A stretch of 64,000 bases of DNA from Gammaproteobacteria bacterium (lineage in GTDB: Bacteria > Pseudomonadota > Gammaproteobacteria > JAJDYQ01): the NCBI GenBank assembly GCA_963662865.1, contig OY759969.1:2287742-2351741 (forward strand). Direction: 5' to 3'. Made by a program: the position numbers and the translations under genes. The notes under the pieces are model-generated. The model was given only the letters and a program-made list of their open reading frames with translations, did no database searches and was not told where the DNA came from. Positions 1,332 to 53,644 of this stretch are shown here, piece after piece; the stretch's first letter is position 1, and the number at the start of each line of letters is the position of its first letter.

Positions 1332-1679
1332 ATGAGCGAGAATGCGATCTCTGAAGAGCGACATGCTGCGGACGATTCACTGCGCAAGGATATCAAGTCG
1401 TTTTTAAGGAACGGCCTGGAAGTTGAAATTGAACCGCGAGCCTACTCCCATGAACAGGTCACGAATGTAGTAGCGCGTTTACAAGGCCTTGAAGATGATG
1501 ATTACATCAATAAACTGATTATTGGTGGATTCACCCTGACACCGTATATGGCCGATGACGATGATAAGCAGGCATGCGAAACCTGTATGTACTATAAAGT
1601 TCATCGGCAGTTTTGTGAGCTCCCTGAGCTCATGGTTCCTGTTGAACCGGAATGGTCTTGCAGACTCTGGCGTATTTAA
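1332..1679 (+). CDS. small 4-Cys protein, hydrogenase-cluster associated (paralog B)
   Basis: 115-aa ORF with the same C-terminal block (CETCMYYKVHRQFCELPELMVPVEPEWSCRLWRI) as 988..1302. Confidence 0.5.
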   Translation: MSENAISEERHAADDSLRKDIKSFLRNGLEVEIEPRAYSHEQVTNVVARLQGLEDDDYINKLIIGGFTLTPYMADDDDKQACETCMYYKVHRQFCELPELMVPVEPEWSCRLWRI

Positions 1680-1764
1680 GGATACGCTGATTAATTCAGA
1701 GTTTCCTGCATCACCTGATGATAAGTACTCTTAAGCGTACTAGTAACAAAGCCTTCATATAGCA

Positions 1765-2232
1765 ATGTTATCAATCATCGGCTGTGGCAATACCAATCGA
1801 AGAGATGACGGTGTAGGAGTACACGTAGCACACCACCTGAAAGCATATCTGGATGGGCGCCCTTCTCACTCTGTAACGGTTTATGATGCCGGAACCAGCG
1901 GTATGGATGTGATGTTTCAAGCCAAAGGCAGTAAGGCACTAATAATCATTGATGCTAATTTCAGTGGTTCAGCCCCAGGCGATATCTTTAAAGTCCCCGG
2001 AGAAGAACTGAGCAATATAAAAGACCCCGGTTATAACCTGCATGATTTTCGATGGGATCATGCCTTATATGCAGGTAAAAAAATATTCAAACAGGAATTT
2101 CCCGATGACATTACAGTGTTTTTGATCGAAGTGGAAAATACTGATATGGGACTGGACCTAACACCTGTAGTCCGCCAATCGGCAGATCGTGTCGTTGAGC
2201 TTATAAAAAACAGGATCACGGCATGGACGTAG
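1765..2232 (+). CDS. hydrogenase maturation endopeptidase (HyaD/HybD/HupD family)
   Basis: N-terminal IIGCGNTNRRDDGVGVHV, typical of the large-subunit C-terminal processing protease. 155 aa. Lies immediately downstream of the large subunit. Confidence 0.8.
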   Translation: MLSIIGCGNTNRRDDGVGVHVAHHLKAYLDGRPSHSVTVYDAGTSGMDVMFQAKGSKALIIIDANFSGSAPGDIFKVPGEELSNIKDPGYNLHDFRWDHALYAGKKIFKQEFPDDITVFLIEVENTDMGLDLTPVVRQSADRVVELIKNRITAWT

Positions 2233-2540
2233 TGGCTATAATCCAAATCAGACACGGCAATATATATATTGACTCCGATATCCATGACAAATATTTCAGC
2301 GGCTTGGAAAGTGTTGCACTATTAAATAGAGACGGATATACATACATAATGCCACTCCGATCAGGTTCCTCAGGCGGACTGCTATTGAAAATGCGTAACG
2401 CTAAAGGTGACCGAGTTATACACAGTATAGAATATTTGAATGAACTGGGAATTCCCTACGAAGACGAGTTACAGGTTGAGGCTAAATGGGACGCTGCGAT
2501 GTCAGGTTTATGTCTTGATATTCCCAAGGTAGAACAATGA
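2223..2540 (+). CDS. hypothetical protein (overlaps protease gene end, probably co-operonic)
   Basis: 105-aa ORF with a 10-nt overlap onto the upstream gene. No recognisable motif. Confidence 0.35.
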   Translation: MDVVAIIQIRHGNIYIDSDIHDKYFSGLESVALLNRDGYTYIMPLRSGSSGGLLLKMRNAKGDRVIHSIEYLNELGIPYEDELQVEAKWDAAMSGLCLDIPKVEQ

Positions 2541-2572
2541 TACCTCAGGCCACCGCTTAATAAAAGCATTCA

Positions 2573-3347
2573 TTACGACCATAATAACAGTAATCGTCGC
2601 AGAATTAAGCAATCCCTATAACCATGCCGGCTTTTCTTTACCGCCGGTACCTGTATGAGTCCGCCGCATATCGCACTTTTTGTTGCTAATAATGTAATGC
2701 GCCGGAGCTTGTAACCCCAGCCCTTTGTGTGGTCGGCAAGCTGGTTGCATTTGACCAGCCAATCGGCCAGCTTTTCGTTAAGCAAGCCCAAGTCTGCAAA
2801 CAATGGGCCTTCATGGAAGTCAACAAACTGTTCTTGGGCAATCCGGCTAAAACGAGAGTGTTCAATAATATGCGTGGTCAACAAGTGCTATAATGCAAGG
2901 ATGAAAAAGTCTATCGCACTCGCTCTCGCACTTTTGTCGTTCCCGCTCGGTGCTACCGAGCGAGTGCTGCTGGACTCACAAATCATCGCCAATCTGCCGA
3001 TAGATCGCCCGCAATCGCTCGACGAGATCGCACACGGCAAGTGGGGCTATGCGATTTTTGACCCCGAAAAGGTTCCGGTGTCAACCCGATACAAAATCGT
3101 CTCCGATCAAAGCAGACAATGCCTGACTCTGCGTTGAAGCAGACACTCTCCCCTTGACGGCCAAATCCGTTAAAAACGCCTCCATTTCCGCCTTGCCCAA
3201 CTCGACGGGATGGCGTTTATTGTGAAACAGGATATAGCGCTTAATCCAATTCAAGTAACTTTGTTCAGTCCTGATCGAATAATTCAATCGCTGCAAGCGC
3301 TCTCGCACCTGACTCAAGAAGGGAGATTTCATTTCTTTATTTTGCAT
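2573..3347 (-). pseudogene. intI: integron integrase (intI) pseudogene: N-terminal fragment (3130..3347) and a weak C-terminal-like fragment (2573..2884), separated by an inserted duplicated segment
   Basis: ORF 3081..3347 translates to VRERLQRLNYSIRTEQSYLNWIKRYILFHNKRHPVELGKAEMEAFLTDLAVKGRVSASTQSQALSAL. This matches the conserved N-terminal SAM-like region of integron integrases ([34 protein letters not shown]...VSVSTHRQALAAL). The ORF then runs into the antisense of the inserted repeat. ORF 2573..2884 contains HIIEHSRFSRIAQEQFVDF, weakly resembling the IntI segment HHMYDQTFQRAFKRAVEQ. The central roughly 170 aa of the integrase are absent. Confidence 0.65.
2885..3130 (+). repeat. duplicated copy (about 90% identity) of the 5' end plus 20 bp upstream of the DUF3047-like gene at 8186..8905 (original about 8659..8912, opposite strand)
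   Basis: ORF 2727..3137 encodes MKKSIALALALLSFPLGATERVLLDSQIIANLPIDRPQSLDEIAHGKWGYAIFDPEKVP. ORF 8186..8992 encodes MKSSIALVLTLLSLPLGAAERVLLDSQIIANLPIDRPQSLDEIARGKWGYAIFDPDKVP. The DNA aligns including the TATAAT-containing leader. Confidence 0.85.
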
Positions 3348-3516
3348 GATTTCGGCAAGATAAAATACGATTTAAAAACAAAAAATTGAATTAAATCAAT
3401 GGCATAAATAAATATCAATATTTCTTAATGCCAGAAACAGACGAATAATTTTAACACAAAAATTTTGTATCTGTCTGCATTCCATGATAGATTGGGAGAT
3501 CTACTAGTAGTTAGCA
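3348..3516 (+). other. putative attI / integron promoter region with a GTTAGCA crossover-like site at 3510
   Basis: AT-rich non-coding stretch between the intI start codon and the first cassette ORF. It ends in GTTAGCA, similar to the GTTAG(G/C)C cores of the downstream attC sites. Confidence 0.4.
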
Positions 3517-3539
3517 GGTAAAAACTTGAAGGGTGACTC

Positions 3540-3899
3540 ATGAGTAAACGATTAAGAGGTTCCTTCAGTGTCTACAAAGAAACCAATAAGTATAAAAACT
3601 TTGTGCAAGTTGAGATGCTTATCATTTCAATCATTATTGGCTATTCAGCATCATCCTGGTTTGTTTGGCTCATTTCATGTTTTTTGCTAGTAGGCGCACT
3701 TGGGACAAAAATCGAAATGATCATTGGCTGGGTTGTCACAATTTTATTGGCGATTTTGTCTACACTACTTTTATTCGAAGGCTCACAAAACCTAGAATTT
3801 AGTCTAGTTTTTGGTTTTTTACTGGGTGGAGTGTCTTGGTATATACATGATTGTGGAAACATATACTGGCGTGACTTTGTTGAGGCTGAATGGTGGTAA
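3540..3899 (+). CDS. small membrane protein (cassette 1, first ORF)
   Basis: 119 aa with three or four hydrophobic helices. AT-rich. Preceded by the RBS-like GAAGGG. Confidence 0.45.
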   Translation: MSKRLRGSFSVYKETNKYKNFVQVEMLIISIIIGYSASSWFVWLISCFLLVGALGTKIEMIIGWVVTILLAILSTLLLFEGSQNLEFSLVFGFLLGGVSWYIHDCGNIYWRDFVEAEWW

Positions 3900-3912
3900 T
3901 TAAAAAGAAAAA

Positions 3913-4632
3913 TTGAAAATTATCATGCCAGACCATAGCCAGGCAAATATATTTGATGTGCACCCATCACAAGAAATGGTAGCACTTTTTAAAGACAAAC
4001 CATTTCAAGGCCAATCACCCGAAAAAGCCTCCATTATATTTCTGAGCTCTGATGCAAATTATTCTCCAGAAATTTCAAACCATCCTTTTTTCAATTTTAT
4101 TTTGGAGTACCAGAAAAATGGAATTGCATTTTGGAAAAAATATGACTGCCATCATCCCTTCCTTTTATCAAACTATCCATTCAACAAAAATACAGGTGGC
4201 GTTCCTTTTCATCGGAATTTTAGGAAAATAGGGCTCAGCACTACCCATATTGAAAACATCTCATTCCTGGAACTTCTGGATATACCAACAATAGGGAACA
4301 AGTCAAAAAACAAAAAACTCTTTTATGATCTCGTCTCAAAATCTCACCTTGCGTACATAGAAAACCTTATGATGGGAGACTCCAGCAAATTATTTTTTGT
4401 ATCTAATGGTGTTTTGAAAGATATTGAAAAGTTAAAAAAACGGTTTCCAGTATTTAAATGGCTGGATCTGCCAGTGACGGGGCGACTTTCAAAAGGAATT
4501 AAAAGCAATAAAATCGAAGAGATTTATCATTTTTCTTCTTGGCAAATACATGGTCAACTTGCTGAAATTTCAACAATAATAAATAAATGGCTGGAAAAAT
4601 CTGCTAACAAATCACTTCAGCGGATGGCGTGA
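3913..4632 (+). CDS. hypothetical protein (cassette 1, second ORF)
   Basis: 239-aa ORF, AT-rich. Its 3' end overlaps attC-1. No family recognised. Confidence 0.45.
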   Translation: MKIIMPDHSQANIFDVHPSQEMVALFKDKPFQGQSPEKASIIFLSSDANYSPEISNHPFFNFILEYQKNGIAFWKKYDCHHPFLLSNYPFNKNTGGVPFHRNFRKIGLSTTHIENISFLELLDIPTIGNKSKNKKLFYDLVSKSHLAYIENLMMGDSSKLFFVSNGVLKDIEKLKKRFPVFKWLDLPVTGRLSKGIKSNKIEEIYHFSSWQIHGQLAEISTIINKWLEKSANKSLQRMA

Positions 4633-4693
4633 ACGTCGGCGGCGCTGACGCGGCAAGGTCGGGTGGCGCCACCGCTGAGTTCAAACGTTAGCC
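4602..4693 (+). other. attC site 1
   Basis: GCTAACAAATCA ... imperfect palindrome (TGAACGTCGGCGGCGC / GCGCCACCGCTGAGTTCA) ... GTTAGCC. Confidence 0.65.
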
Positions 4694-4733
4694 CCTTTAG
4701 GGAAATTGCATAAAACAGAAGTGCCATTAAATT

Positions 4734-5471
4734 ATGGAACTGTTCTTTCTCCTTCTGCTAATTTTTATCGTTTTACCCCTGGTATTTAGCTCGGCAAAGT
4801 ACAAGGGGTATGCGGGTGAAAGAAAAGTTGTACGTAAGCTTGGAAAATTTATCGATTCGATCGAGGGGGGTAAAGCATTCCATAATGTAACATTAGCAAC
4901 GCTCGATGGAACCACTCAAATTGATCATGTTCTTTTAGCCCCCCAAGGTATTTTCGTTATTGAAACTAAAAATATGACGGGATGGATATTTGGAGGGGAG
5001 TGGCAAAAAAGATGGACACAAACCATATATAAGAAAAAAGTAAATTTCCAAAATCCTATCCACCAAAACTACAAGCACGTAAAAGCACTGGAAAAACTGC
5101 TAGAAGCGAACCCTGAAATCATATTCAATGTTGTTGTTTTTGTAGGTGATGCCAAGTTTAAAACTGCTATGCCTGACAATGTTATGAAATTAAGAGGGCT
5201 GTTACCTTATATAAATTCGCATTCTGAGCACGTTTTAACCGGCAGAGACATTGAAAAGTATGATTCATTGATAGATCGAACCATTTCAGGCAACGTGGTA
5301 TCTGATAAACAGCACGTGCATAATGTTAAGAGAAATCGTGAGAACCCTATTTGTCCAAGGTGTGGAAGCTCTATGGTGCTGCGCACAGCGAAAAAAGGAA
5401 AGAATAAAGGCTCACAATTTTGGGGGTGCTCTGGTTTTCCATCATGCAGGGCAGTCAAGAAAAAGGGCTAA
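4734..5471 (+). CDS. NERD-domain protein with C-terminal topoisomerase-type C4 zinc finger (cassette 2)
   Basis: N-terminal TM segment. The NERD-like core is GERKVVRKL...IDHVLLAPQGIFVIETKN. C-terminal CPRCGSSMVLRTAKKGKNKGSQFWGCSGFPSCR matches the zf-C4 Topo-DNA-binding pattern. Confidence 0.7.
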   Translation: MELFFLLLLIFIVLPLVFSSAKYKGYAGERKVVRKLGKFIDSIEGGKAFHNVTLATLDGTTQIDHVLLAPQGIFVIETKNMTGWIFGGEWQKRWTQTIYKKKVNFQNPIHQNYKHVKALEKLLEANPEIIFNVVVFVGDAKFKTAMPDNVMKLRGLLPYINSHSEHVLTGRDIEKYDSLIDRTISGNVVSDKQHVHNVKRNRENPICPRCGSSMVLRTAKKGKNKGSQFWGCSGFPSCRAVKKKG

Positions 5472-5580
5472 CAATGGCGGTCGAGAGGGACTTACCTTCC
5501 GCGGTGTTCGTTTGTGCTTTACGCTACGCTAGCACAAGCCTCACCTCGCTACGGTAAGCCCCTCACCGCTAGCGTTAGGC
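5465..5580 (+). other. attC site 2
   Basis: GGCTAACAATGG ... inverted repeats ... CTCACCGCTAGCGTTAGGC. Confidence 0.7.
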
Positions 5581-5710
5581 TTTATACGCATATCGTTTGC
5601 AGCACCATTACTTTATGGAATAAGTAGACTATTACTACAGATCAAAGCCCAGAAAAGTGAATTTACTGGTAAATTTACGCATATTGGTTGTTTAAGAACT
5701 AGGAAATAGC

Positions 5711-6919
5711 ATGAGTAAATTAAAACTGGGAGTTATTGGAACTTCAAGAAAAGAAGATGAACGACGTTTCCCAATTCATCCAGAGCATTTGTCTCGTATT
5801 CCTGATGCTATTCGTCGTCAGCTAATATTTGAGGAGGGTTATGGAGCACCGTTTGATATTTCAGATTCAGAGATTGCTGCTCAGGCGGGTGGGATTGCAA
5901 CACGGCATGAATTATTAGCAGACATTGGCATGGTAATCATTTCAAAACCTGTACTGGCTGATTTATTGGAGCTCCGTGAAGGAGGAACGTTGTGGGGTTA
6001 TGTGCATTGTGTACAACAGCAGGATATCACTCAGGCTGCTTTGAACCGTAAGCAGACACTTATTGCCTTTGAGGATATGTTTGTTTGGTCTCCAAGCGGA
6101 CAACGATGTCGACATACATTCTATAAAAACAACGAATTAGCTGGTTATTGTGCGGTACTGCATGCCTTACAGCTTAAAGGAATCGATGGGCACTACGGCA
6201 ACCGCCGTAAAATAGTTATTTTCAGTTTTGGTGCAGTCAGTCGGGGAGCGATATACGCGCTCAAGGCTCATGGTTTTAGAGACATTACCATTTGTATTCA
6301 GCGCCCAGACCATGAAGTTCGTGAAGAGGTGCTTGATTGTCACTACGTTAAGGTTAGAGCGGGTAACGAAGACGAAGCGCGGATGATGGTGGTGGAGCAC
6401 GATGGAGCTAAAAGACCGTTGGCTGAACTCATTCTTGAAGCAGATATCATTGTAAATGGAACCTTTCAAGAAACGGATAATCCTACTGACTTTGTGATCG
6501 AAGAGGAAAGTTCGTGCCTTAAACCTCACAGTCTTATTATTGATGTCAGTTGTGATCAGGGAATGGGGTTCTTTTTTGCTAAACCAACCACATTTAAACA
6601 ACCGATATTTAAATATAAAACGATAGATTACTATGCTGTGGATCATACACCGAGCTTCCTTTGGGAAAGCGCAACTCGCTCAATTTCTGCCGCACTTATT
6701 GTATATTTATCAACGGTTCTATCGGGCCGTGATAGTTGGCAGAAAAATGAAACTATCAGATATGCTATAAATATTGATGGTGGTGTTATTAAAAAAACCT
6801 CAATTATTACGTTTCAAAATCGCGAATCGAATTACCCCCATAACCATATCAACCGACTTGAAAATAAATCCAAGAAGCCTAACAAATCAATCCAGCCGAC
6901 CGCCTTCGGCGGCGGCTGA
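5711..6919 (+). CDS. alanine dehydrogenase/PNT-family (N5-carboxyethyl-ornithine synthase-like) protein (cassette 3)
   Basis: 402 aa. N-terminal LKLGVIGTSRKEDERRFPIHPEH, followed by a Rossmann segment IVIFSFGAVSRGAIYAL. The family assignment is from pattern recall only. Confidence 0.45.
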   Translation: MSKLKLGVIGTSRKEDERRFPIHPEHLSRIPDAIRRQLIFEEGYGAPFDISDSEIAAQAGGIATRHELLADIGMVIISKPVLADLLELREGGTLWGYVHCVQQQDITQAALNRKQTLIAFEDMFVWSPSGQRCRHTFYKNNELAGYCAVLHALQLKGIDGHYGNRRKIVIFSFGAVSRGAIYALKAHGFRDITICIQRPDHEVREEVLDCHYVKVRAGNEDEARMMVVEHDGAKRPLAELILEADIIVNGTFQETDNPTDFVIEEESSCLKPHSLIIDVSCDQGMGFFFAKPTTFKQPIFKYKTIDYYAVDHTPSFLWESATRSISAALIVYLSTVLSGRDSWQKNETIRYAINIDGGVIKKTSIITFQNRESNYPHNHINRLENKSKKPNKSIQPTAFGGG

Positions 6920-6933
6920 TTGAGGCGTTAGGC
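6876..6933 (+). other. attC site 3
   Basis: GCCTAACAAATCAATCCAGCCGACCGCCTTCGGCGGCGGCTGATTGAGGCGTTAGGC, with a GCCTAAC inverse core and a GTTAGGC core around a short palindrome. Confidence 0.75.
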
Positions 6934-6956
6934 GCAAACCACAAACTAATGTTTTG

Positions 6957-8042
6957 TTAGGATTTTTCATTTAACAGAAACTCCATACCTGCCAACTCAT
7001 GTCCATTTACGATAATGCTAATCGAATGATTACCTGCATAATATTCTCTTGTTGAAATTTTCTTGAACGAAAAAGATTTCTTAACAGTTTTGTTATTACT
7101 ATCAACTTCTGACTCAGATATTTTGAATATTTTCCTTGATAAATTACCGCTTTTCTTAACAAAATCTATCGCATATTCAATTCTAAGCCTTCCGAGCTTT
7201 TGTTTTTGCGATTCAATTGTAAAAGAGAAATTCAGATTACCTTCCATTTCAACGGATTTTTGGGTTGTGAAATTTTTAATTTCAAGATGCTCTGGCTTTG
7301 AGAAGCCAAACAGATTCATTATCTCCGGCTGCCCTTGCTTTAGTAGCGTGCGACAAGCGTGCTTAATAATCCAGTCTGTTCGTTGATTGCTACCCAGCCA
7401 GCTCTTGGCTATCTCTATTACAATCTGTGGGTTATCTTTTGATATGTCATTCAGATTATTGGCAACGCTCCTTCTTACATATTCACTATCATCATTTTTC
7501 AGTTTTTCCAATATCGGCAGGATTTGGGATGGATCTCGCTTAAATTCAGGAAGTGCCATTGCCCAGGGTAAGCGAGGCCGACATCCTTCAGATGAAAGCC
7601 GACGTACATGGTGATTTTCTGATTCAGCCCATAATTCCATTTGTGCCATCATTTTCTTATTATGTTTTTTAATGAATGGTCGAACCGCAGACTCAGAACT
7701 TGCATACGAGGTGAAGTGCTCCAAAGCATGAATGGACTCTTCATACTGATCTAAGCCATACAGCTCCACAAAACCCGGAAAAAACATATACTGAAATCCA
7801 CTGAATTTTGATGACAATTTCATTAGTATTTGAATAGCATCAGAATAATCCATTGGTAAATATTGGTGCAATGATTCTGAAATATGTTTCATCCGCTCCT
7901 TTAGTTCTTTTTCTTTCCATTCATTATCAAATATATGAGAAGAAAACCCATCTTCATCAAAATTCTCATGCAGGCTTGACACTTGTTCGCACAAGGATTT
8001 TACAAGTTCAACGTTGTATAAGTTTTTTAATGGTTCCGGCAT
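6957..8042 (-). CDS. DNA alkylation repair protein (AlkD/AlkC-like HEAT-repeat glycosylase family) (cassette 4, reverse orientation)
   Basis: 361 aa. YVRRSVANNLNDISKDNPQIVIEIAKSWL matches the DNA_alkylation repair-enzyme family signature. Confidence 0.55.
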   Translation of the reverse strand: MPEPLKNLYNVELVKSLCEQVSSLHENFDEDGFSSHIFDNEWKEKELKERMKHISESLHQYLPMDYSDAIQILMKLSSKFSGFQYMFFPGFVELYGLDQYEESIHALEHFTSYASSESAVRPFIKKHNKKMMAQMELWAESENHHVRRLSSEGCRPRLPWAMALPEFKRDPSQILPILEKLKNDDSEYVRRSVANNLNDISKDNPQIVIEIAKSWLGSNQRTDWIIKHACRTLLKQGQPEIMNLFGFSKPEHLEIKNFTTQKSVEMEGNLNFSFTIESQKQKLGRLRIEYAIDFVKKSGNLSRKIFKISESEVDSNNKTVKKSFSFKKISTREYYAGNHSISIIVNGHELAGMEFLLNEKS

Positions 8043-8185
8043 GGTTGGTTTTGAATCCTAACATTGCCAATGAGCGGCTTATTTTTCAGTGGCAAGCGCA
8101 GCACAGCTACTGAAAAATAAGTCCGATTCAATTGGGCTTGTCAAGCTTTTTTCATAATATGGTATCGGATTCAGGCAAGAAAATG

Positions 8186-8905
8186 CTATTTTGCATCCGC
8201 GCTTTCGGCCAGTTTGATCTTCCGGAAGCGAGCGACTACCTTGCCCCCGGCATTGTCGGAGTCGGCCATCAGACCGATTCCGTCGATGATCGGGTCGGTT
8301 GCAAAAATCTCGCGCCACCACGCGGCGACATTGATCGCCTGACGATGCCATATACCGTTTTCTGCATCGGCATTGGCGAATGCGCGTATCTGTACCCGGT
8401 GCAGAAAGTTGTTATAGCGTTTATACGGGCTGGGCCATAGTGCGCCAACGGCTTTTTCGCGCGCACGCACCAGATTAAGCGTCCTTGAGCTTAATTTACC
8501 GCCGGCCGACAGGTAAATGCGAAAGGCGAAGTCATCGCCATCCCTGCTATCTTCGGGCGGCCCATTGGTCGGGGACTCATCGACACGCCAATCAAAGATC
8601 AAAAAGGGAGTTGCGCTCAGGTCGAGCGGCGTCTCGAACTTCAGGTAAAAAAACGACGCGCCCCCCATGGCAGTCGCTTGCAGTGCATGCCTGCCTTGAT
8701 CGGGGACGATTTCGTATCGGGTTGGTGCCGGGACCTTGTCGGGGTCAAAAATCGCATAACCCCACTTCCCGCGTGCGATCTCGTCGAGCGATTGTGGGCG
8801 ATCTATCGGCAGATTGGCGATGATTTGCGAATCCAACAGCACTCGCTCGGCAGCACCGAGCGGCAACGACAGCAGTGTAAGAACGAGTGCAATAGAGCTT
8901 TTCAT
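8186..8905 (-). CDS. secreted DUF3047-like protein
   Basis: Signal peptide MKSSIALVLTLLSLPLGAA. The likely start is ATG at 8905 rather than the upstream TTG of the track ORF. Its 5' end is duplicated at 2885..3130. Confidence 0.55.
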   Translation of the reverse strand: MKSSIALVLTLLSLPLGAAERVLLDSQIIANLPIDRPQSLDEIARGKWGYAIFDPDKVPAPTRYEIVPDQGRHALQATAMGGASFFYLKFETPLDLSATPFLIFDWRVDESPTNGPPEDSRDGDDFAFRIYLSAGGKLSSRTLNLVRAREKAVGALWPSPYKRYNNFLHRVQIRAFANADAENGIWHRQAINVAAWWREIFATDPIIDGIGLMADSDNAGGKVVARFRKIKLAESADAK

Positions 8906-43748: not shown

Positions 43749-44153
43749 CTACCCCCTCCAACCCTTAAATTTCTTTCGGCAATAGCGGTTGATCGAATCG
43801 TAATCAGGGAAGTGCAACAACCAGTGTTTATCAGCCGGCTCATCATACTCACACCAGTCATTCGAATAATCCCGGCAAACCTGTGGACGGGTTTCATAGA
43901 TACCGCAACGACCGTCGGGCAATAATTTTTCACAGGTTGTGGTGAAGATCACGTACCACGTCTTATCAGAGTCCTTATAAACTTCAACGCCTTTGTGTAA
44001 TACCTGCCAGGCCAGAACCTCGAATTCATACCGGGTTCCGGGCGGATCAATTTCCTGAGTAACATAATGACAGCATTTTGCCCCTTCACAAAAGCTGCAT
44101 TTATTGTCGGCGCTAACCTCAACCTTGAGTTTCCTGTTTTTTCCCTTCGGCAC
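43749..44153 (-). CDS. YkgJ/UPF0153-family cysteine-cluster protein
   Basis: CSFCEGAKCC ... DGRCGIYETRPQVCRDY. Confidence 0.6.
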   Translation of the reverse strand: MPKGKNRKLKVEVSADNKCSFCEGAKCCHYVTQEIDPPGTRYEFEVLAWQVLHKGVEVYKDSDKTWYVIFTTTCEKLLPDGRCGIYETRPQVCRDYSNDWCEYDEPADKHWLLHFPDYDSINRYCRKKFKGWRG

Positions 44154-44256
44154 GGTAGAAGAAATTCAATAACAAAAAGTTTATAATACGCACACCTTAC
44201 ATGAATTGAACCAAAATGCGAACCACCCTGAAAACCACCTCGCCGGGAGTCCAGCC

Positions 44257-45069
44257 ATGAGCTGGTGGGGAAAAGTTGTCGGTGGCGCTGTCGGCCTGAT
44301 GATGGGCGGTCCTTTGGGAGCCGCGCTTGGTGTGGCATTGGGGCATCAGTTCGATCACGGTTTTCAAGAAGTACTATCAGACAGTAACCCCAGTCAGGCC
44401 GACATGGAAAAAATCCAGGCGGCGTTTTTTACTGCCACCTTTTCCGTTATGGGCCATCTCGCAAGAGTTGACGGTCGTATCAGTAAAGACGAAATCAATA
44501 TGGCTGAACAGGTCATGCAACAAATGCAGCTCAATAATGACCAGCGCAGGGCTGCAATAAATCTCTTTAACGAAGGCAAAAATCCGGACTTCATCATTGA
44601 TGAAGCACTGCGACAATTCCGTCAAGTGGCACACCGCCGTACCAACCTGCTGCAAATGTTCCTTGAAATCCAGGTCTATGCCGCCTTCGCCGACGGGTTG
44701 CTACACCCCAGGGAAGAGGAAATGTTGCAGCATATTTTCCGCATGCTCGGCTTTAGTCATTTCGACTTTGAAATCATTGTCGGACGTGTACAGGCCGAGA
44801 TGCACCTCGGTGATCGTCAGCAACGCCAGTCCGGCCCGACAACTCAATCCATCGTCAGCGACCAGGACGCCTACACCATACTCGGCGTGCACCAAAACGC
44901 AGACAACAAAGACATCAAAAAAGCCTACCGCCGTTTAATGAACCAACACCACCCCGACAAACTGGTTGCTAAAGGTCTGCCGGAAGAAATGATTGAAATG
45001 GCGACCACAAAGACCCATAAAATTCGTGCGGCATATGACCATATCAAATTATTGCGCGGATTAAAGTAA
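44257..45069 (+). CDS. djlA: co-chaperone DjlA (TM segment, TerB-like domain and C-terminal J domain)
   Basis: MSWWGKVVGGAVGLMMGGPLGAALGVALGHQFD ... J-domain DAYTILGVHQNADNKDIKKAYRRLMNQHHPDK. Confidence 0.85.
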   Translation: MSWWGKVVGGAVGLMMGGPLGAALGVALGHQFDHGFQEVLSDSNPSQADMEKIQAAFFTATFSVMGHLARVDGRISKDEINMAEQVMQQMQLNNDQRRAAINLFNEGKNPDFIIDEALRQFRQVAHRRTNLLQMFLEIQVYAAFADGLLHPREEEMLQHIFRMLGFSHFDFEIIVGRVQAEMHLGDRQQRQSGPTTQSIVSDQDAYTILGVHQNADNKDIKKAYRRLMNQHHPDKLVAKGLPEEMIEMATTKTHKIRAAYDHIKLLRGLK

Positions 45070-45127
45070 AATCCTTATCCCGGACCGCAAAAACATATTG
45101 GCCGGAAAACCCCGATTAATGCAGAAC

Positions 45128-45154
45128 ACAAAAAACGCACGGCTGTTTTCCGTG
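45128..45154 (-). terminator. rho-independent terminator for the hydrolase gene
   Basis: Minus-strand hairpin CACGGAAAACAGCCGTG followed by CGTTTTTTGTGTT. Confidence 0.5.
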
Positions 45155-45216
45155 TCCTGAAATACAAGCAAGTCGGCGGCCCCTGTAAAAGGTCAATCGC
45201 CCAAAAGGCCGATCAC

Positions 45217-46023
45217 CTACAAACTCTCCAGCCATTTCAGGATCTCGTCACCCAGCGCATCAACATCCCTCTGCATACTGTAATAGTGATCCGCGCCATT
45301 GATCATGACCTGCTCAGACTTGTCATTGCCCGCTTTGCGCAGCATGGACCGGCGATCCAGAGCGAGCCTGCGTACCGCCGGAAAATCGTTACTGCCATAG
45401 ATATCCAGTATCGGCTTGCCGATCCTGTCCAGCGGCAAAGGCCGTCTCATTGGCTGCCTGTAATCAGTGGCGCCCATGCCGACACCAATATAGGCGTCAA
45501 AATCCCCATCGCCATTTTCACGGACATAGCTCATGGCCATATGAGTACCACAACTATGCGCCAGTATGACCACGCTCCCATAGCCCGAGTCACGCAGATA
45601 TCGAATTCCCGCCGCAATTCGCCCCCGCGCCTCAGGAAAGACAGGCACATAATCATAATATCTGGCCTCCTTACCGAGTACAGGCATTTGCAGGGATAAA
45701 GTCGCCCAGCCCTCTTCCGGTAGCCTCTCGCGCAGCGGCTGCACAACAGCCGGCCATACCGGATGGTAACCACGACCATGCAGAATCAGAACCGCACCTT
45801 TCAGCTGGTCGGCATCCGATTCGGTCATGACCGCGAGAAAATCGCGCTCACCGTCGTTCAGGTCAATCGGGTCGCCGACCACAATGGCATCGACAATCTC
45901 ATCTCTGAGACGCAGCTCCCGGTCATAATCAGGCGCATTGGCAGCCTGCAACGATAACGCCGATGAAGTGCAGGCGATGAGTAACATCCCGGTCAGACCG
46001 TTCTTTGTTAAACACACTGTCAT
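45217..46023 (-). CDS. secreted alpha/beta-hydrolase-fold protein
   Basis: Signal peptide. ILAHSCGTHMAMSY nucleophile-elbow-like motif. Confidence 0.6.
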   Translation of the reverse strand: MTVCLTKNGLTGMLLIACTSSALSLQAANAPDYDRELRLRDEIVDAIVVGDPIDLNDGERDFLAVMTESDADQLKGAVLILHGRGYHPVWPAVVQPLRERLPEEGWATLSLQMPVLGKEARYYDYVPVFPEARGRIAAGIRYLRDSGYGSVVILAHSCGTHMAMSYVRENGDGDFDAYIGVGMGATDYRQPMRRPLPLDRIGKPILDIYGSNDFPAVRRLALDRRSMLRKAGNDKSEQVMINGADHYYSMQRDVDALGDEILKWLESL

Positions 46024-46200
46024 TCCCCTTCCTCATGCACAGGCAAACCCAGGGACACGCCGATAATACCAGAATCATGGCCGGGATGACGCCCCCCAAC
46101 AGCGACCACCTGAACGAAAGGAGCGTACAGCATGAGCCGGGTTTAAGACCCAGGCAGGCCGGAAAATCGGATAGTCTGGTAATCAACACACAGTATGATT

Positions 46201-46250
46201 AAGACTGGCCTGCAAGCATCCACGCAGGCTGCGACTTTGTCTCATGGCAA
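46201..46250. repeat. left imperfect direct repeat flanking the dCD-like gene insertion
   Basis: AAGACTGGCCTGCAAGC...CACGCAGGCTGCGACTTTGTCTCATGGCA versus AAAACTGGCCTGGAACGCC...CCATGCAGGTCGCGACTTTGTCTCATAGCA at 47531..47602. Confidence 0.7.
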
Positions 46251-46509
46251 CTAATCAGGAAAGGTTTACAATGTGTTCCGGAAGGGATACCCTCGCTCAC
46301 ATGACAGTTATGGACCCGCAACCGGCCCAATAGCCGGCCGAAACAGCGGGTTGACATATTCGTAAAATGCACCACAAGCGCCATAGACAATATAATCCGC
46401 GTCGGCCCTGCCGCCCGGATCTGCCTCCGTCGCCGCTCAGACGGTCAATGCCGACGGTTTCCGCACCGTTATTCGGCCCGCCAATAGTATGGTACGCGCA
46501 TAGCCGGGT

Positions 46510-47496
46510 TTGATCATGTCAAAATTAATTGCAGACCGGGAAATAAGTCAGTTAATCGGTAGCGTCCTGATCGATGCCGATGAAAGTTACTTAAATCCTA
46601 ATGGTATTGAGCTTCGCTTGGGGAAACACATTTACTTCCATTCGACTAATGAGGAATGTGAACTGGCACCTGAGCAATTTTTAGTTGTCAGGCCAGGTGA
46701 AAATGTCATTATTACAAGCCATGAAGAGATTGATTTCTCTGAAAAAACCGTTCAACAACACTTTCCGGATTGCATGCTGATGGGTTGGGTGACACCAACG
46801 ACAACGATGATGAGAGAAGGGATTTCCCAGATTACCACAAAAGTGGATTCTGGCTATGTCGGCCAGCTTAACTGGAGGCTGCGTAATGGTTCGACAAAAG
46901 ATCTCATTCTCGGTTATGGGGAACCCGTCTATAAACTAACCCTGGAATTGCTTAAAGAAGATGAAAAGCCTGACAAGCCTTATGGAGAACGGGAACGGGA
47001 CACCTATCAGGACAATAAAGGCATCAAGCATTCTACCCGGCAAATACCCGCACAAATCCCCGAGAATAAAAAAGTAAAATCCAGCTTTGAAAGCTCTGAC
47101 CCGGTCAAACAGCTAAAAGACGCAGGATATCCCTTCAACCACATCAGTACTGAACTGATCGCATTGCGAGGTGATATCGAAACCGTATCGAAAGATTTCG
47201 GCAACTTGAAAAGAGAAATTGACCAGCTCGGCAATAAAATAGATAAAGAAACCAAAACACTGGCCGATAAAATTCAGGAAGCACAGCAAAACCTTATGCA
47301 AAATGCAGAAAATTTATTCAATAATAAATTCAATAAAATAACAGGCATCCTTATAGGCTCGTTAGTCATTATAGCAAGCGTTACTGCCTACTTCTCGAAA
47401 AGCAACATCGACGATAACGTCTTATTATTAGGAGGATTAATTGCTGGTATTATGATTATCCTCATAATAGTCGGCCTCAATAAAGCCGATAAATAA
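46510..47496 (+). CDS. dCTP deaminase/dUTPase-fold domain protein fused to a coiled-coil and two C-terminal transmembrane helices
   Basis: N-terminal roughly 160 aa are colinear with Dcd: LIADREISQLIGSVLI, IELRLGKHIYF, VRPGENVIITSHEEIDFS, WVTPTTTMMREGISQITTKVDSGYVGQLNWRLRN and GEPVYKLTLEL. This is followed by a KE-rich coiled-coil and the hydrophobic segments ITGILIGSLVIIASVTAYF and LLLGGLIAGIMIILIIVGL. Confidence 0.7.
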   Translation: MIMSKLIADREISQLIGSVLIDADESYLNPNGIELRLGKHIYFHSTNEECELAPEQFLVVRPGENVIITSHEEIDFSEKTVQQHFPDCMLMGWVTPTTTMMREGISQITTKVDSGYVGQLNWRLRNGSTKDLILGYGEPVYKLTLELLKEDEKPDKPYGERERDTYQDNKGIKHSTRQIPAQIPENKKVKSSFESSDPVKQLKDAGYPFNHISTELIALRGDIETVSKDFGNLKREIDQLGNKIDKETKTLADKIQEAQQNLMQNAENLFNNKFNKITGILIGSLVIIASVTAYFSKSNIDDNVLLLGGLIAGIMIILIIVGLNKADK

Positions 47497-47530
47497 CATT
47501 AAACTATCCGAACGCTTGGTGCCGGGAGGA

Positions 47531-47602
47531 TAAAACTGGCCTGGAACGCCCATGGACGACCGACAGCAACCCATGCAGGTCGCGACTTTGTCTCATAGCA
47601 GG
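47531..47602. repeat. right imperfect direct repeat flanking the dCD-like gene insertion
   Basis: See the left copy at 46201..46250. This copy carries a 20-bp insertion between the two conserved blocks. Confidence 0.7.
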
Positions 47603-47777
47603 CGGTTACCGATGCGGCCAGCCAGTTCAAGAGTGAGTTCGACCATCTGAGAAAGGGCACTATATGGTGGACTCATACAGCACCTGGACAACAATTAGCG
47701 GCTTCATATAGAATGCCCCGCCTTTTCACCGCCACCGATGTCGGCGGACATAATTAACCGTTTTTTCGAGGTGCGAC

Positions 47778-48482
47778 ATGCAGAACTATGCCATTGCCCC
47801 ATCCATTCTTTCAGCCGATTTTGCCAGACTGGGCGATGAAGTGAACAGGGTTATTGCCTCTGGTGCCGATATCGTGCATTTCGACGTAATGGATAATCAC
47901 TATGTTCCCAACCTGACTATCGGGCCTCTGGTCTGCGATGCACTGCGCAAGCACGGCGTAACGGCTGAAATTGATGTTCATCTGATGGTCAAACCGGTGG
48001 ACCGCATCATTCCTGATTTCGCCAAAGCCGGTGCCAGTTACATCACCTTCCATCCGGAAGGTTCCGAGCATATTGATAGTTCCCTGCAACTCATCAAAAA
48101 AGAAGGCTGTAAATGTGGCCTGGTATTCAATCCGGCAACGTCGCTGGACTACCTGCGTTACACCATCGACAGGATCGACATGGTGCTGCTGATGTCCGTA
48201 AATCCGGGTTTTGGGGGCCAGAGCTTCATTTCCACCGCGCTGGATAAACTGCGTGAAGCCCGCCGCATCATCGACCAGTCCGGCCGTGACATCCGCCTGG
48301 AAATCGACGGCGGTGTGAAGATCGACAATATCCGTAAAATCGCTGAGGCGGGTGCCGATACTTTCGTAGCCGGTTCCGCCATTTTCGGCGCGGCCTGCGG
48401 CAGCGATCCAAACAGTTACGATACCGTTATCAAGGCGATGCGGAACGAGCTTGCGAAAGCCGAGGTCGTTGGAGCGGCCTGA
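47778..48482 (+). CDS. rpe: ribulose-phosphate 3-epimerase
   Basis: [31 protein letters not shown] and SVNPGFGGQ. Confidence 0.9.
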
Positions 48483-48543
48483 CCATCAGTTCATCGAACC
48501 ATACAGGCGCGACCCGGATCACCAGAACCCGCCTTTTTCCATT

Positions 48544-49221
48544 ATGTTGAAAAAACCTGAACTGATTCTGATTGATGTCGATGGTACACTGGTTGACAGT
48601 CTCCCCGACCTCGCCCACTGCGTCAATTCCATGCTGTTTGAGCTCGGCATGGAAAGGCATCCCGAGGACAGGATTCGTGAATGGGTTGGCAATGGCGTTG
48701 AGCGCCTTACTCGCCGTGCACTGGCGGGCCAACTGAACGGTGAGCCGGACAACACCCTGTTCCACAAAGGTTATCCTCTGTTCCTTGACTGTTATGCCGA
48801 AAACACTTCCAGACGCAGCGCACTTTATCCGGGCATCCGTGAAGGAATCAATAAATTGCACTCACTTGGCTTCACTTTGGGCAGTGTTACCAACAAGGCC
48901 GCACAGTTCACGATTCCATTGCTAAAGGAACTGGACGTTTATGACGATTTCGCGGTTGTTATTGCCGGCGACACACTGGAAAAACAGAAACCCGATCCCG
49001 CGCCACTGCTGTATGCGGCGGAGCAGACGGGTACTGATCCGGAAAACTGTCTGATGGTGGGTGACTCCGTCAGTGACGTGAAAGCCGCACGTGCCGCAGG
49101 CTTCCAGATTGTCTGCATGCGTTATGGCTATAACCATGGCAATGATATCTGCGAAGCCAACCCGGACGCAGTCATTGATTCACTGGAGCAACTGGATACA
49201 CTGTTTACCGAGACACCATAA
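48544..49221 (+). CDS. gph: phosphoglycolate phosphatase (HAD superfamily)
   Basis: LILIDVDGTLVDS motif I and DSVSDV motif. Lies directly downstream of rpe, as is usual. Confidence 0.8.
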   Translation: MLKKPELILIDVDGTLVDSLPDLAHCVNSMLFELGMERHPEDRIREWVGNGVERLTRRALAGQLNGEPDNTLFHKGYPLFLDCYAENTSRRSALYPGIREGINKLHSLGFTLGSVTNKAAQFTIPLLKELDVYDDFAVVIAGDTLEKQKPDPAPLLYAAEQTGTDPENCLMVGDSVSDVKAARAAGFQIVCMRYGYNHGNDICEANPDAVIDSLEQLDTLFTETP

Positions 49222-51480: not shown

Positions 51481-51489
51481 CAATACACC

Positions 51490-52135
51490 GCCACACAACC
51501 AGATAATCAAGCCAGACCAGCGAAAAAAGACTAGAACCTATCTCAAGTGTTATCCCAACTACAAAACGGTCCATCGGCGTTTTCAAAAATGGTGCGAAGA
51601 CCATGTGATTCGTGACATGATGGTGGAGCTTGTCAATACATTGAGAGCGCAAAATGACTTAAGATGAATTGGAATGTTTTATTGACGGCATGTTTTCTCC
51701 AGCCAAAGGTGGAGGCGAAGAAATTAGGTTGACCAAGCGCGGAAAAGGCATTAAAATCATGGCGATAGTGGACAAACACGGATTGCCTTTGTCGGTCAGT
51801 CCTCATGCGGCCAGTCACCATGAAGTGACATTAGTTCAACTGAGTTTTGATTTTTACATGATTGAGGCGAGGCCGGAAAAACTGATTGGAGATAAGTCGC
51901 TATGACAGCGCTCCGTTTGATGAAGAACTGGCAGAACAAGGAATAGAAATGATTGCGCCGCACAAGCGAAATCGAGTCAAGCCAAGTACTTAAAATGGGC
52001 GAAAACTCAGGCGCTATCAATGGCGCTGGTTGGCCGAATATTTTCGGTGGGAGTATTATGCTGCTAATTTCCTGGGCTTTGTTCAACTGGCTACTGTTAA
52101 TATCCTGCTTAAACAATTTTGATATAGGTCTTAAT
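51490..52135 (+). mobile_element. IS5-family DDE transposase gene remnant (frameshifted and 5'-truncated)
   Basis: Pieces in three frames: YKTVHRRFQKWCEDHVIRDMM; ECFIDGMFSPAKGGGEEIRLTKRGKGIKIMAIVDKHGLPLSVS...EARPEKLIGDKSYDS; [17 protein letters not shown]...RRYQWRWL. The IS5/IS1031-type C-terminal region carries a deletion relative to the second copy. Confidence 0.75.
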
Positions 52136-53219
52136 GGCAAGGAAGACGAGAAAAAGAATGTATTATATGCTGAAAAAAGCCTTATATCCATACTACGGCA
52201 TTAGAGTCACAATAAAGCGCTTGAATTATATATGGAAATTAGCGTTTTACCCGTTAATTATTCAAGTTGGGAGAAGAAAAGAGCCAGGCATAAATGAGAA
52301 TAAAAGTACACGAACAGTAAAAATTTTACATTGCTCCTCAAGAATAAATTTCACCACGTTAAAGAAGCAATTTAATACAGAAAAAGGATGGGGGAATATA
52401 GAATTCACAACAGACAGATATGCTGATTATTATCTTATAGTGGATCATCCGCTGAATGGTCAACTGTCATACTACAATCCGAAGCGAACGTTGCTTTATT
52501 TTGGAGAGCCTTCAGGATCTTCAATGCCAATGTTTAGAAGAATGTTCATGAAGGCATGGAGCGAGCTTGATAAAGAAAGCTTTTTTCATGTGTCACAAAT
52601 GCCGCACAGACGAATGTTTACGATCTGGCATCTCTCAAAGTCATACCATTGGTTGAAAGAAAACTCAATCCGTAAAACAAAGGTGTGTTCCACGGTAACA
52701 TCAGATCAGAGCCTGCTTCCTCTTCATAAAAAAAGATTGCAGTTCGTCACAATGCTGGATGAGCAGATCAGCATAGACATATATGGAAAAGTGAACAGGT
52801 TCAGGTCGCCACTAAAAGCCTGTTCGCAATATCAAGGGGAACTGCCGCCTATTGGAAAAGACAAAGGACTGTTTCCATACAAATATCATTTTGCTTCTGA
52901 GAACAACATTGAAGATAATTACATTACGGAGAAGCTAACGGATGCAATTCTGGCGGAGTGTTTATGCTTTTATTATGGGACGAAGACAGCTAAAGACTGG
53001 ATAGATAGCGAGGCATTTATCCATATAGATATAATGAGGCCTGCTGAGGCGATTAGCCTTATAAAAAAGGCAATTGAAAATAAAGAGTGGGAAAAGCGCA
53101 TCCACATTATACGCAAAGAAAAGCAGAAAATACTGGATGAAATGCAGCTATTTGCTGACATTGAGAATGTAATAAATCACAATGAAAAATTTATGCAGTA
53201 TAAAAAATTGAGAAAGTAA
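52134..53219 (+). CDS. GT10-family alpha-1,3-fucosyltransferase-like glycosyltransferase (AT-rich cargo between IS remnants)
   Basis: YHFASENNIEDNYITEKLTDAILAECLCFYYGTKTAKDWIDSEAFIHI matches the conserved FxxxFENSxxxxYxTEK block of alpha-1,3-fucosyltransferases such as the H. pylori FutA motif FENSQGYGYVTEKIIDAYFSHTIPIYWG. The true start may be an internal Met at about 52161. Confidence 0.7.
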   Translation: MARKTRKRMYYMLKKALYPYYGIRVTIKRLNYIWKLAFYPLIIQVGRRKEPGINENKSTRTVKILHCSSRINFTTLKKQFNTEKGWGNIEFTTDRYADYYLIVDHPLNGQLSYYNPKRTLLYFGEPSGSSMPMFRRMFMKAWSELDKESFFHVSQMPHRRMFTIWHLSKSYHWLKENSIRKTKVCSTVTSDQSLLPLHKKRLQFVTMLDEQISIDIYGKVNRFRSPLKACSQYQGELPPIGKDKGLFPYKYHFASENNIEDNYITEKLTDAILAECLCFYYGTKTAKDWIDSEAFIHIDIMRPAEAISLIKKAIENKEWEKRIHIIRKEKQKILDEMQLFADIENVINHNEKFMQYKKLRK

Positions 53220-53295
53220 ATGATGTGATAATTGATATTGATTGTAAAAAATAGAAGAAGGTTTGTGGGGGATGAGGAGGTCCTATAGTATCTAT

Positions 53296-53640
53296 GATTT
53301 TTCAAAACACTTTTGAGTTTTGATTTTTACATGATTGAGGCGAAGCCGGAAAAACTGATTGGAGATAAGGCCTATGACAGCGATCCGCTTAATGTAAGGG
53401 CTGGCAGAACAAGGAATAGAAATGATTGCGCCACACAAGAGAAATCAAGTTAAGCCAAGTACTCAAGATGAACGAAAGCTCAGGCGCTATCAGCGCCGCT
53501 GGTTGGTTGAACGTTTTTTTGCCTGGATACAATGGCAAAGACGCTTCCTTGTTCGATGGGAATATCATGCTGCCAATTTCCTGGGCTTTGTTCAACTGGC
53601 TACTGTTAATATCCTGCTTAAACAATTTTGAGATAGGCTC
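53296..53640 (+). mobile_element. second, partial copy of the IS5-family transposase 3' end (direct repeat of 51850..52135)
   Basis: [74 protein letters not shown] is about 88% identical to the first copy and ends 5 bp before the trpD ATG. Confidence 0.75.
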
Positions 53641-53644
53641 TACT

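Follow-up and report, generated by a model that had tools for sequence, protein, structure and literature searches.

We analysed a stretch of DNA from a gammaproteobacterium (contig OY759969.1; the whole stretch of 64,000 nucleotides is called the window in the following), which carries between two divergent housekeeping genes a single gene for a predicted membrane protein with an N-terminal head of the Dcd/dUTPase fold. The gene sits alone between the DUF3530 gene on the reverse strand and rpe on the forward strand, within the order cysQ-djlA-DUF3530 / rpe-gph-trpE-trpG (Table 1). The list of open reading frames (ORFs) gives a TTG at position 46510 as its start; since similarity to homologues, both at the DNA and at the protein level, begins only at the ATG at 46516, we took the latter as the start codon. 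With a GC content of 0.41 and a GC3 of 0.43, the gene is AT-richer than six neighbouring genes, which range from 0.51 to 0.55 in GC and from 0.57 to 0.62 in GC3. Both the solitary position and the AT-richness had been pointed out in a preliminary description of this DNA, made by reading the sequence, and both are borne out.

Table 1 Coordinates of the features discussed in the text (positions in the window unless a locus of another carrier is named).
Feature	Coordinates	Strand	Basis or remark
dUTPase-fold membrane-protein gene	46516..47496	+	intact ORF, 326 amino acids, ATG start, stop codon 47494-47496
Dcd/dUTPase-fold head, residues 1-175	46516..47040	+	Pfam, structure model, Foldseek, alignments
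Linker, residues 176-224	47041..47187	+	invariant family motif, no Pfam match, low predicted local distance difference test (pLDDT) score
Charged long helix, residues 225-272	47188..47331	+	DSSP on model, heptad count, charge composition
First hydrophobic helix (putative transmembrane helix 1, TM1), residues 275-293	47338..47394	+	Kyte-Doolittle 2.09
Second hydrophobic helix (putative transmembrane helix 2, TM2), residues 302-320	47419..47475	+	Kyte-Doolittle 2.97
DUF3530 alpha/beta-hydrolase gene	45217..46023	-	flanking host gene; anchor used to find the empty site
rpe, ribulose-phosphate 3-epimerase gene	47778..48482	+	flanking host gene; TIGR01163, E=5e-90
Window-specific segment, 1612 bp	46079..47690		DUF3530-rpe intergenic; blastn and local alignments
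Direct repeat, left copy	46200..46249		16-nt block and 30-nt block
Direct repeat, right copy	47531..47600		same two blocks, 20 extra nt between them
GT10 fucosyltransferase-like gene, 361 amino acids	52134-53219	+	Pfam E=2.1e-11, GC 0.37
Direct repeats of ~290 bp flanking the GT10 gene	51841-52128 and 53314-53637		85-98% identity
DDE transposase-like genes of acidobacterial carriers	L016 8942-9859; L017 8936-9859; L021 8914-9858; L044 8912-9817; L053 8978-9862

The head was assigned by profile searches and by structure prediction. The Pfam family PF22769 (DCD) matches residues 6-144 (E=2.6e-7; the 31.3 bits exceed the gathering score of 27) and spans positions 3-151 of the 153 positions of the profile; the same family is the precomputed assignment of most homologues. 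The profile TIGR02274 (dCTP_deam) matches end to end with E=3.7e-11, yet reaches just 43.1 bits against a curated cut-off of 92.8. An AlphaFold model of the monomer, built with 33 homologues in the alignment, has a pLDDT of ~90 over residues 1-170. A Foldseek search of the PDB with this model returned the T. pacificus dUTPase 8y1w as best match (E=3.4e-12, target TM-score 0.85), along with E. coli Dcd (2.3e-11), M. tuberculosis DCD-DUT (2.9e-11), B. halodurans DCD-DUT and the dUTPase P45. The predicted structure confirms a Dcd/dUTPase fold for residues 1-175, as had been proposed for the N-terminus from sequence motifs.

We then compared the head with E. coli K-12 Dcd, in an alignment that is gap-free through the active-site strand, and judged conservation over 33 homologues. 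E. coli S111/S112, R115, R126 and D128 correspond to T96/T97, R100, K109 and D111, all of which are invariant in the family, and the lid pattern Y...Y-x-x-x-x-G...S is retained as the invariant Y156, Y164, G169 and S173. The further invariant positions are T95, G113, G116, L118-N119-W120, R123 and N124 in the head and Q165 and R175 in the lid. The catalytic Glu of the deaminases (E138 in E. coli Dcd, E145 in the M. jannaschii enzyme) is R121 here, and the position holds R, G, A or S across the 33 homologues; HMMER alignments bear this out. H121 of E. coli Dcd is replaced by S104, a nearly invariant Ser. Both E138 and H121 are among the residues mutated in deposited Dcd structures, and the mutants 1xs4, 2v9x, 2hxd and 3gf0 alter the E138/E145-type Glu. 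In the dUTPases, which are the closest relatives with a solved structure, this Glu is likewise absent ('GNLTLMLFN'), and D111, G113, G116, T95-97 and R100, i.e. the motif-III Asp and the phosphate-binding loop, align with 8y1w and 9ln0. N119, W120 and R123, invariant in the family, have no counterpart in these Dcd-type dUTPases.

The preliminary description had suggested dCTP deaminase chemistry and had left the retention of the catalytic residues as a point to check. The outcome is divided: the phosphate-binding residues, the Asp and the lid are kept, and the deaminase Glu and His are lost. Because the catalytic Glu is replaced by variable R, G, A or S throughout the family, the protein is, as judged by its residues, not a dCTP deaminase and would not make dUTP from dCTP. 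The retained triphosphate-binding residues, the dUTPase-type Asp and the lid lead us to predict binding of a nucleoside triphosphate and possibly its hydrolysis. The ligand is probably a pyrimidine (deoxy)nucleoside triphosphate, although this substrate class is inferred.

Among proteins of known structure, the trimeric Dcd-type dUTPases of archaea and thermophiles (e.g. Thermococcus pacificus, 8y1w; P45, 9ln0; Sulfolobus tokodaii, 2zdc/2yzj) are the best match to residues 1-175 both in structure (Foldseek E=3e-12, target TM-score 0.85-0.89) and in sequence (hmmsearch E=2.8e-8). They share with the window protein a compact head that lacks the insertion of E. coli Dcd, the missing deaminase Glu, the Ser/Thr-x-x-Arg-x-Gly loop and the 'VD(P/S)G(W/Y)xG' Asp motif. 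However, they are soluble proteins of ~155 residues with an identity to the window protein of just 21-24%, and the latter adds 150 residues that comprise the linker, the long helix and the two TM helices. The Dcd and DCD-DUT enzymes (E. coli 1xs1, M. tuberculosis 2qxx and M. jannaschii 1ogh) have the same fold (Foldseek E ~1e-10 to 1e-11), phosphate-binding residues, catalytic-site Asp and C-terminal lid. In contrast to Dcd, the window protein lacks E138 and H121, scores under half the TIGR02274 cut-off, is without the 23-residue insertion of the E. coli enzyme, and appears as a membrane-anchored, sporadic rather than housekeeping protein. Dcd and dUTPases form homotrimers, whose active sites lie between subunits and are closed by the C-terminal lid, and by analogy the window protein is probably a trimer as well.

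Behind the head, the protein continues through a linker and a long charged helix into two hydrophobic helices, defined as 19-residue stretches above a Kyte-Doolittle value of 2.0. The linker carries the invariant motif Q199-L200-x2-A203-G204-Y205-P206-F207-x2-I210-x2-E213, with the family consensus QL(R/K)(E/D)AGYPF(D/N)HI(G/S)TEL. DSSP applied to the model assigns helix to residues 225-296 and 300-324, at low pLDDT. The preliminary description had read this part as a coiled coil followed by two C-terminal hydrophobic helices; the arrangement of a helix and two TM segments stands, and a coiled-coil stalk of residues 225-272 is plausible only, with a modest heptad signal (in the best register, hydrophobic residues fill 12 of 19 a/d positions). 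Two hydrophobic helices are present in 106 of the 117 full-length homologues, and G277-x3-G281 in TM1 as well as G311 in TM2 are nearly invariant. Conserved glycines of this GxxxG type point to specific helix packing and suggest that the hairpin does more than anchor the protein, i.e. that it self-associates and has a function of its own. Moreover, basic residues (Lys) precede TM1 and follow TM2, which by the positive-inside rule suggests an N-in/C-in hairpin with the head on the cytoplasmic side.

To place the protein among its relatives, we turned to sequence collections. A word-indexed protein search yielded 414 proteins at E<=1e-3, nearly all of 325-335 residues and with identities of 50-55% between phyla, which apart from the window's own contig stem from metagenomes or metagenome-assembled genomes (MAGs) and bear at most the automatic JGI label 'deoxycytidine triphosphate deaminase'. 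When each species was represented by a single genome, 51 loci were detected among 185,579 species representatives, and all carriers are environmental MAGs. They include members of Acidobacteriota, Verrucomicrobiota, Planctomycetota, Nitrospirota, Gemmatimonadota, Zixibacteria, Stahlbacteria, Binatia, and Gamma- and Deltaproteobacteria, and protein identity across phyla is 45-55%. Residues 176-326, searched with HMMER against the full set of 1.84 billion representatives, gave 53 matches, all from the same family or fragments of it, and none of these 53 joins the C-terminal module to another head. The architecture of the family is fixed, and the module occurs only with this head. The gene is under purifying selection, with a dN/dS of 0.16-0.18 against the three closest homologues and of 0.11-0.17 among those homologues. 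No family match was found in 72,556 plasmids or among the 2.9 million viral contigs of IMG/VR; the sole match in a phage collection was a distant rudivirus dUTPase, and matches in BFVD were limited to the head. A phage or plasmid origin was rejected on these grounds. In four of four gammaproteobacterial carriers, the gene has a GC content of 38-41% inside flanks of 52-60%. As far as sequence can tell, it is an accessory, horizontally transferred, single-gene module.

The combination of such a head with a membrane hairpin is found a second time. One carrier contig (L071) encodes, two genes away from a true family member, a protein of 275 residues (2193-3020) with a Thr at the E138 position and two terminal hydrophobic helices. 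We found 42 homologues of this protein (P0295-P0335) of ~270 residues, or of 410-434 residues where the helical linker is longer. One or two hydrophobic helices close the chain in the large majority of them, and in those that we inspected the Glu position is taken by Thr or Ala. Like the window protein, they pair a Glu-less DCD head with a C-terminal pair of hydrophobic helices. Unlike it, they lack the AGYPF linker motif and have other lengths, and their similarity to it is remote and confined to the head (phmmer E=2.6e-5). Judging from these alignments, a Glu-less DCD head with a two-TM (2TM) hairpin is a recurrent design that comprises at least two sequence families.

How the gene came to lie at its site could be followed in relatives that were found via the DUF3530 anchor (74-81% protein identity). 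Two of them (L058 and L059) have an empty site, in which 54 bp stand in place of the 1612 bp of the window and the gap between rpe and DUF3530 is 203 bp. They match the window as far as 46078 and again from 47691 onwards; the segment has a sharp left boundary (46078/46079), and its right boundary is known only as at or before 47691. In two further relatives, L055 and L057, the match ends at this same point (...CCAGAATCAT). Beyond the breakpoint, L057 continues with unrelated sequence and L055 with an AT-rich ORF for a polytopic membrane protein (2-613), located exactly at the breakpoint of the window gene. Furthermore, a restriction-modification (RM) pair of an N6_N4 methyltransferase and a MvaI/BcnI-MutH-like endonuclease lies between DUF3530 and djlA in L055/L056 (1748-3257). 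Accessory genes are therefore acquired on either side of DUF3530. Together, the empty site and the differing cargo at the breakpoint argue that the DUF3530-rpe site is a variable hotspot and that, in comparison with one relative or more, the gene has been inserted. With other carriers, the window shares similar DNA only within the ORF. The non-coding parts of the insert, 437 bp 5' and 194 bp 3' of the ORF, have a host-like GC content of 0.55-0.56. The 5' part, from the breakpoint to the start codon (46079-46515, GC 0.56), holds no convincing ORF, has no Rfam match and is common to no other carrier of the gene; it may be an older layer of the hotspot.

The gene is bracketed by imperfect direct repeats. 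Their 30-nt blocks (46220-46249 and 47571-47600) agree at 26 of 30 positions and contain an exact 15-mer, and their 16-nt blocks (46200-46215 and 47531-47546) agree at 14 of 16. The best local score of flank against flank was 40, and none of 1000 dinucleotide shuffles reached it (maximum 31), so that the repeats noted in the preliminary description are statistically real. It had also taken them as the bounds of a 1.3-kb site-specific insertion. Acquisition stands in view of the empty site, which at the same time shows the insert to be wider (46079-47690). A repeat-mediated, site-specific event does not stand, as the repeats lie 120 bp (left) and 30-90 bp (right) inside the window-specific segment. 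They have exactly two copies in the 64 kb and were not found in the empty site, in 59 related loci or in a metagenome scan. The closest carriers have no comparable flanking repeats, and no other carrier has these repeats beside its gene. The idea of a dispersed genomic element or a shared cassette end was rejected in view of the two-copy count and the lack of a match in these loci and scans. Structured RNA in the repeats and flanks was likewise dismissed, with no Rfam match and folds of both copies on both strands at z -0.9 to +0.5. An integrated element with att sites was rejected since there is no recombinase nearby and the repeats are not at the empty-site junctions. Among the surrounding housekeeping genes of the window there is no integrase or transposase, and at the true junctions we detected no target-site duplication, the left-to-right alignment scoring at chance (1938 of 2000 shuffles score as high). 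A promoter and terminator scan gave nothing above shuffle expectation, and Rfam had no match at E<=1 over 44000-49000.

We next inspected the genomic company of the gene in other carriers, within 7 kb on eight metagenome contigs that were picked solely for their length. All eight carry RM, toxin-antitoxin (TA) or other defence genes near the family member. These are HEPN/MNT on the first contig; a Type ISP RM system and a KAP NTPase on the second; an Mrr-like gene on the third; ImmA-like M78, HNH, type I RM and GmrSD genes on the fourth; SIR2-STAND, PDC-S46, RM and PIN genes on the fifth (L064); and on the sixth hsdR-hsdM-hsdS directly upstream of the gene, with PIN and Fic nearby. The seventh has type I RM, AAA_13 and two ParE/antitoxin pairs (ParE/Phd), and the eighth (L071) Nudix, the second DCD-2TM protein, a retron-type PRTase and an ORC-like ATPase. 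On L064, the gene directly upstream of the homologue (4503-6671) is a near-full-length match to the PADLOC candidate PDC-S46 (E=1.6e-280) beside a SIR2 and STAND NTPase gene. On L071, a nucleotide-centred cluster (1570-8527) follows downstream of the family member, with a Nudix-box protein of 203 residues, the Glu-less DCD+2TM protein of 275 residues, a 650-residue protein of no assigned function, a PRTase of the PADLOC retron III-A type (E=4e-16) and an ORC/CDC6-like protein; this cluster may be a larger uncharacterised conflict system.

No conserved partner gene was seen beside family members, save a transposase-like gene restricted to the Acidobacteriota. There, a DDE transposase-like gene of ~305 residues (DDE_Tnp_IS1 / IS240 matches) lies ~100 bp upstream on the same strand in 5-7 loci, with remnants in L025 and L034 and a displaced copy in L049. 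The block of transposase and Dcd-2TM gene has 68-71% DNA identity within unrelated flanks, and no consistent terminal inverted repeats were found around it. The search for homologues and neighbourhoods that had been proposed for this gene thus returned a rare family of fixed architecture without a conserved partner. Overall, it looks like a mobile accessory gene for which defence islands are a frequent, though not the invariable, destination.

The preliminary description had also linked the protein to established anti-phage dCTP deaminases, a kinship that has to be given up. Those proteins (AvcD) comprise ~576 residues; their N-terminal domain is kinase-like, and their deaminase domain is a zinc-dependent cytidine deaminase of the CDA clan. 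A dUTPase domain does figure in a list of defence domains that were predicted by computation and are unvalidated. The window protein shares with the AvcD type the name and possibly a theme of pyrimidine deoxynucleotides. It has no homology to them, no Pfam match to a CDA or kinase domain and no PADLOC match. A likeness in design, and in design only, is offered by abortive-infection effectors that join a cytoplasmic domain for nucleotide binding to TM helices at the C-terminus, an arrangement known from defence islands. Such effectors of the CBASS, Pycsar and Thoeris systems have SAVED, cNMP-binding or SLOG/Macro sensors and are encoded beside the enzyme that makes their ligand. The window protein differs from them by its dUTPase-fold head and by the absence of a conserved partner gene. 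With no partner synthase gene, any ligand would therefore come from the cell or the phage.

On this basis, we consider it a credible candidate for a single-gene defence module, with an architecture so far undescribed within the Dcd/dUTPase superfamily. Our preferred reading, which we hold at somewhat short of an even chance and which draws on analogy, is a conflict protein of the anti-phage or abortive-infection type, in which the nucleotide state of the head is coupled via the stalk to the membrane hairpin. A gene dropped into a variable spot between two housekeeping genes would encode a cytoplasmic trimeric head that binds, and possibly hydrolyses, a pyrimidine (deoxy)nucleoside triphosphate. 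Behind the lid, the conserved linker of each chain would lead into a stalk of three strands and on to a membrane bundle of six helices, and closure of the lid upon binding or hydrolysis would be transmitted to the hairpin, as in sensor-TM effectors. A bolder form of this idea is possible, if on the unlikely side: a new single-gene immune class, 'DCD-2TM', of at least two families and three size classes, in which a deaminase-dead trimer senses a phage-altered pool of pyrimidine deoxynucleoside triphosphates (dNTPs; dUTP or hypermodified dNTPs), gates the six-helix bundle and aborts infection without a signal synthase.

Several observations weigh against a coupled conflict protein. Trimer and membrane coupling are drawn from analogy, stalk and linker are modelled at a pLDDT of 29-55, and the intact phosphate-binding and catalytic-Asp residues would suit a plain enzyme as well as a sensor. 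The earlier suggestion of a defence role is made plausible by the eight long contigs; it is not matched by the two nearest neighbours per side across 48 non-redundant loci of carriers (L001, L002 and 46 genome-representative ones), which are mostly housekeeping genes, as in the window, where no defence gene lies nearby. Defence matches there are a minority (scattered but strong PADLOC matches to AbiEii, PifA and type I/II/III methyltransferases), and a seed-profile search finds an RM operon in just one genome-representative locus. The defence association is heterogeneous, and its counts are raw and without background. No PADLOC model (v2, 2023) matches the window protein, and we found no literature on the family or the architecture, whose members are known from sequence alone.

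Three other explanations were weighed against these data. A head that works as a dUTPase-like dNTP pyrophosphatase, for instance on dUTP, dCTP or a pyrimidine dNTP modified by a phage, and whose catalysis is itself the function (defence through depletion, or sanitation), with the helix and the two TM segments merely localising or restraining it, strikes us as possible but doubtful. It would fit the invariance of T95-97, R100, K109, D111 and the lid residues Y164, Q165, G169 and S173, the bona fide dUTPases as best structural matches, and the Nudix hydrolase and other nucleotide enzymes that adjoin the homologue in L071. However, a mere anchor needs neither an invariant linker motif nor the GxxxG of TM1 nor a fixed architecture, and the known depletion enzymes of defence are soluble. 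That the protein is instead a membrane-tethered dCTP deaminase which depletes dCTP during infection is very improbable. The similarity to Pfam DCD and TIGR02274 and the automatic JGI label speak for it; the replacement of E138 by a non-conserved R, G, A or S and of H121 by Ser, a TIGR02274 score far under the cut-off, the Glu-less dUTPases as closest structures and the unrelated CDA fold of the validated defensive dCTP deaminases speak against it.

An accessory role outside defence appears unlikely, be it that of a membrane toxin, selfish or addictive, which travels as cargo of a transposon or hotspot, or that of a niche physiological nucleotide sensor at the membrane that has nothing to do with phages. 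Such a role would agree with the linkage of the acidobacterial gene to the upstream DDE transposase-like gene, with the many loci, the window included, that have no defence neighbours, and with carriers that are all environmental MAGs. Yet a solitary toxin without a linked antidote should not last under purifying selection (dN/dS 0.11-0.18) across many phyla, the gene is missing from the searched collections of plasmids, phages and viral contigs, and its repeated embedding in RM, TA and STAND islands is typical of defence genes. Should the conflict-protein reading be true, the family would be new to PADLOC v2 (2023) and to the literature searched, and it would be the first defence family with a dUTPase-fold head wired to the membrane. 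Nucleotide-centred immunity would then include, besides depletion enzymes and signalling by cyclic nucleotides, proteins that directly sense or process pyrimidine dNTPs at the membrane. The family is compact (~330 residues), single-gene and highly conserved, and therefore easy to synthesise and test. Independent of its role, it marks an annotation trap, with hundreds of metagenomic proteins labelled 'deoxycytidine triphosphate deaminase' that lack the deaminase Glu.

A second AT-rich one-gene island lies in the window at 51484-53641, between trpG and trpD. It consists of the GT10 fucosyltransferase-like gene and its flanking direct repeats (Table 1), and the relative L058 has just 49 bp at this place. 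Two repeat-flanked, AT-rich, one-gene insertions within 7 kb hint at a common acquisition mechanism for the Dcd-2TM and the GT10 gene.

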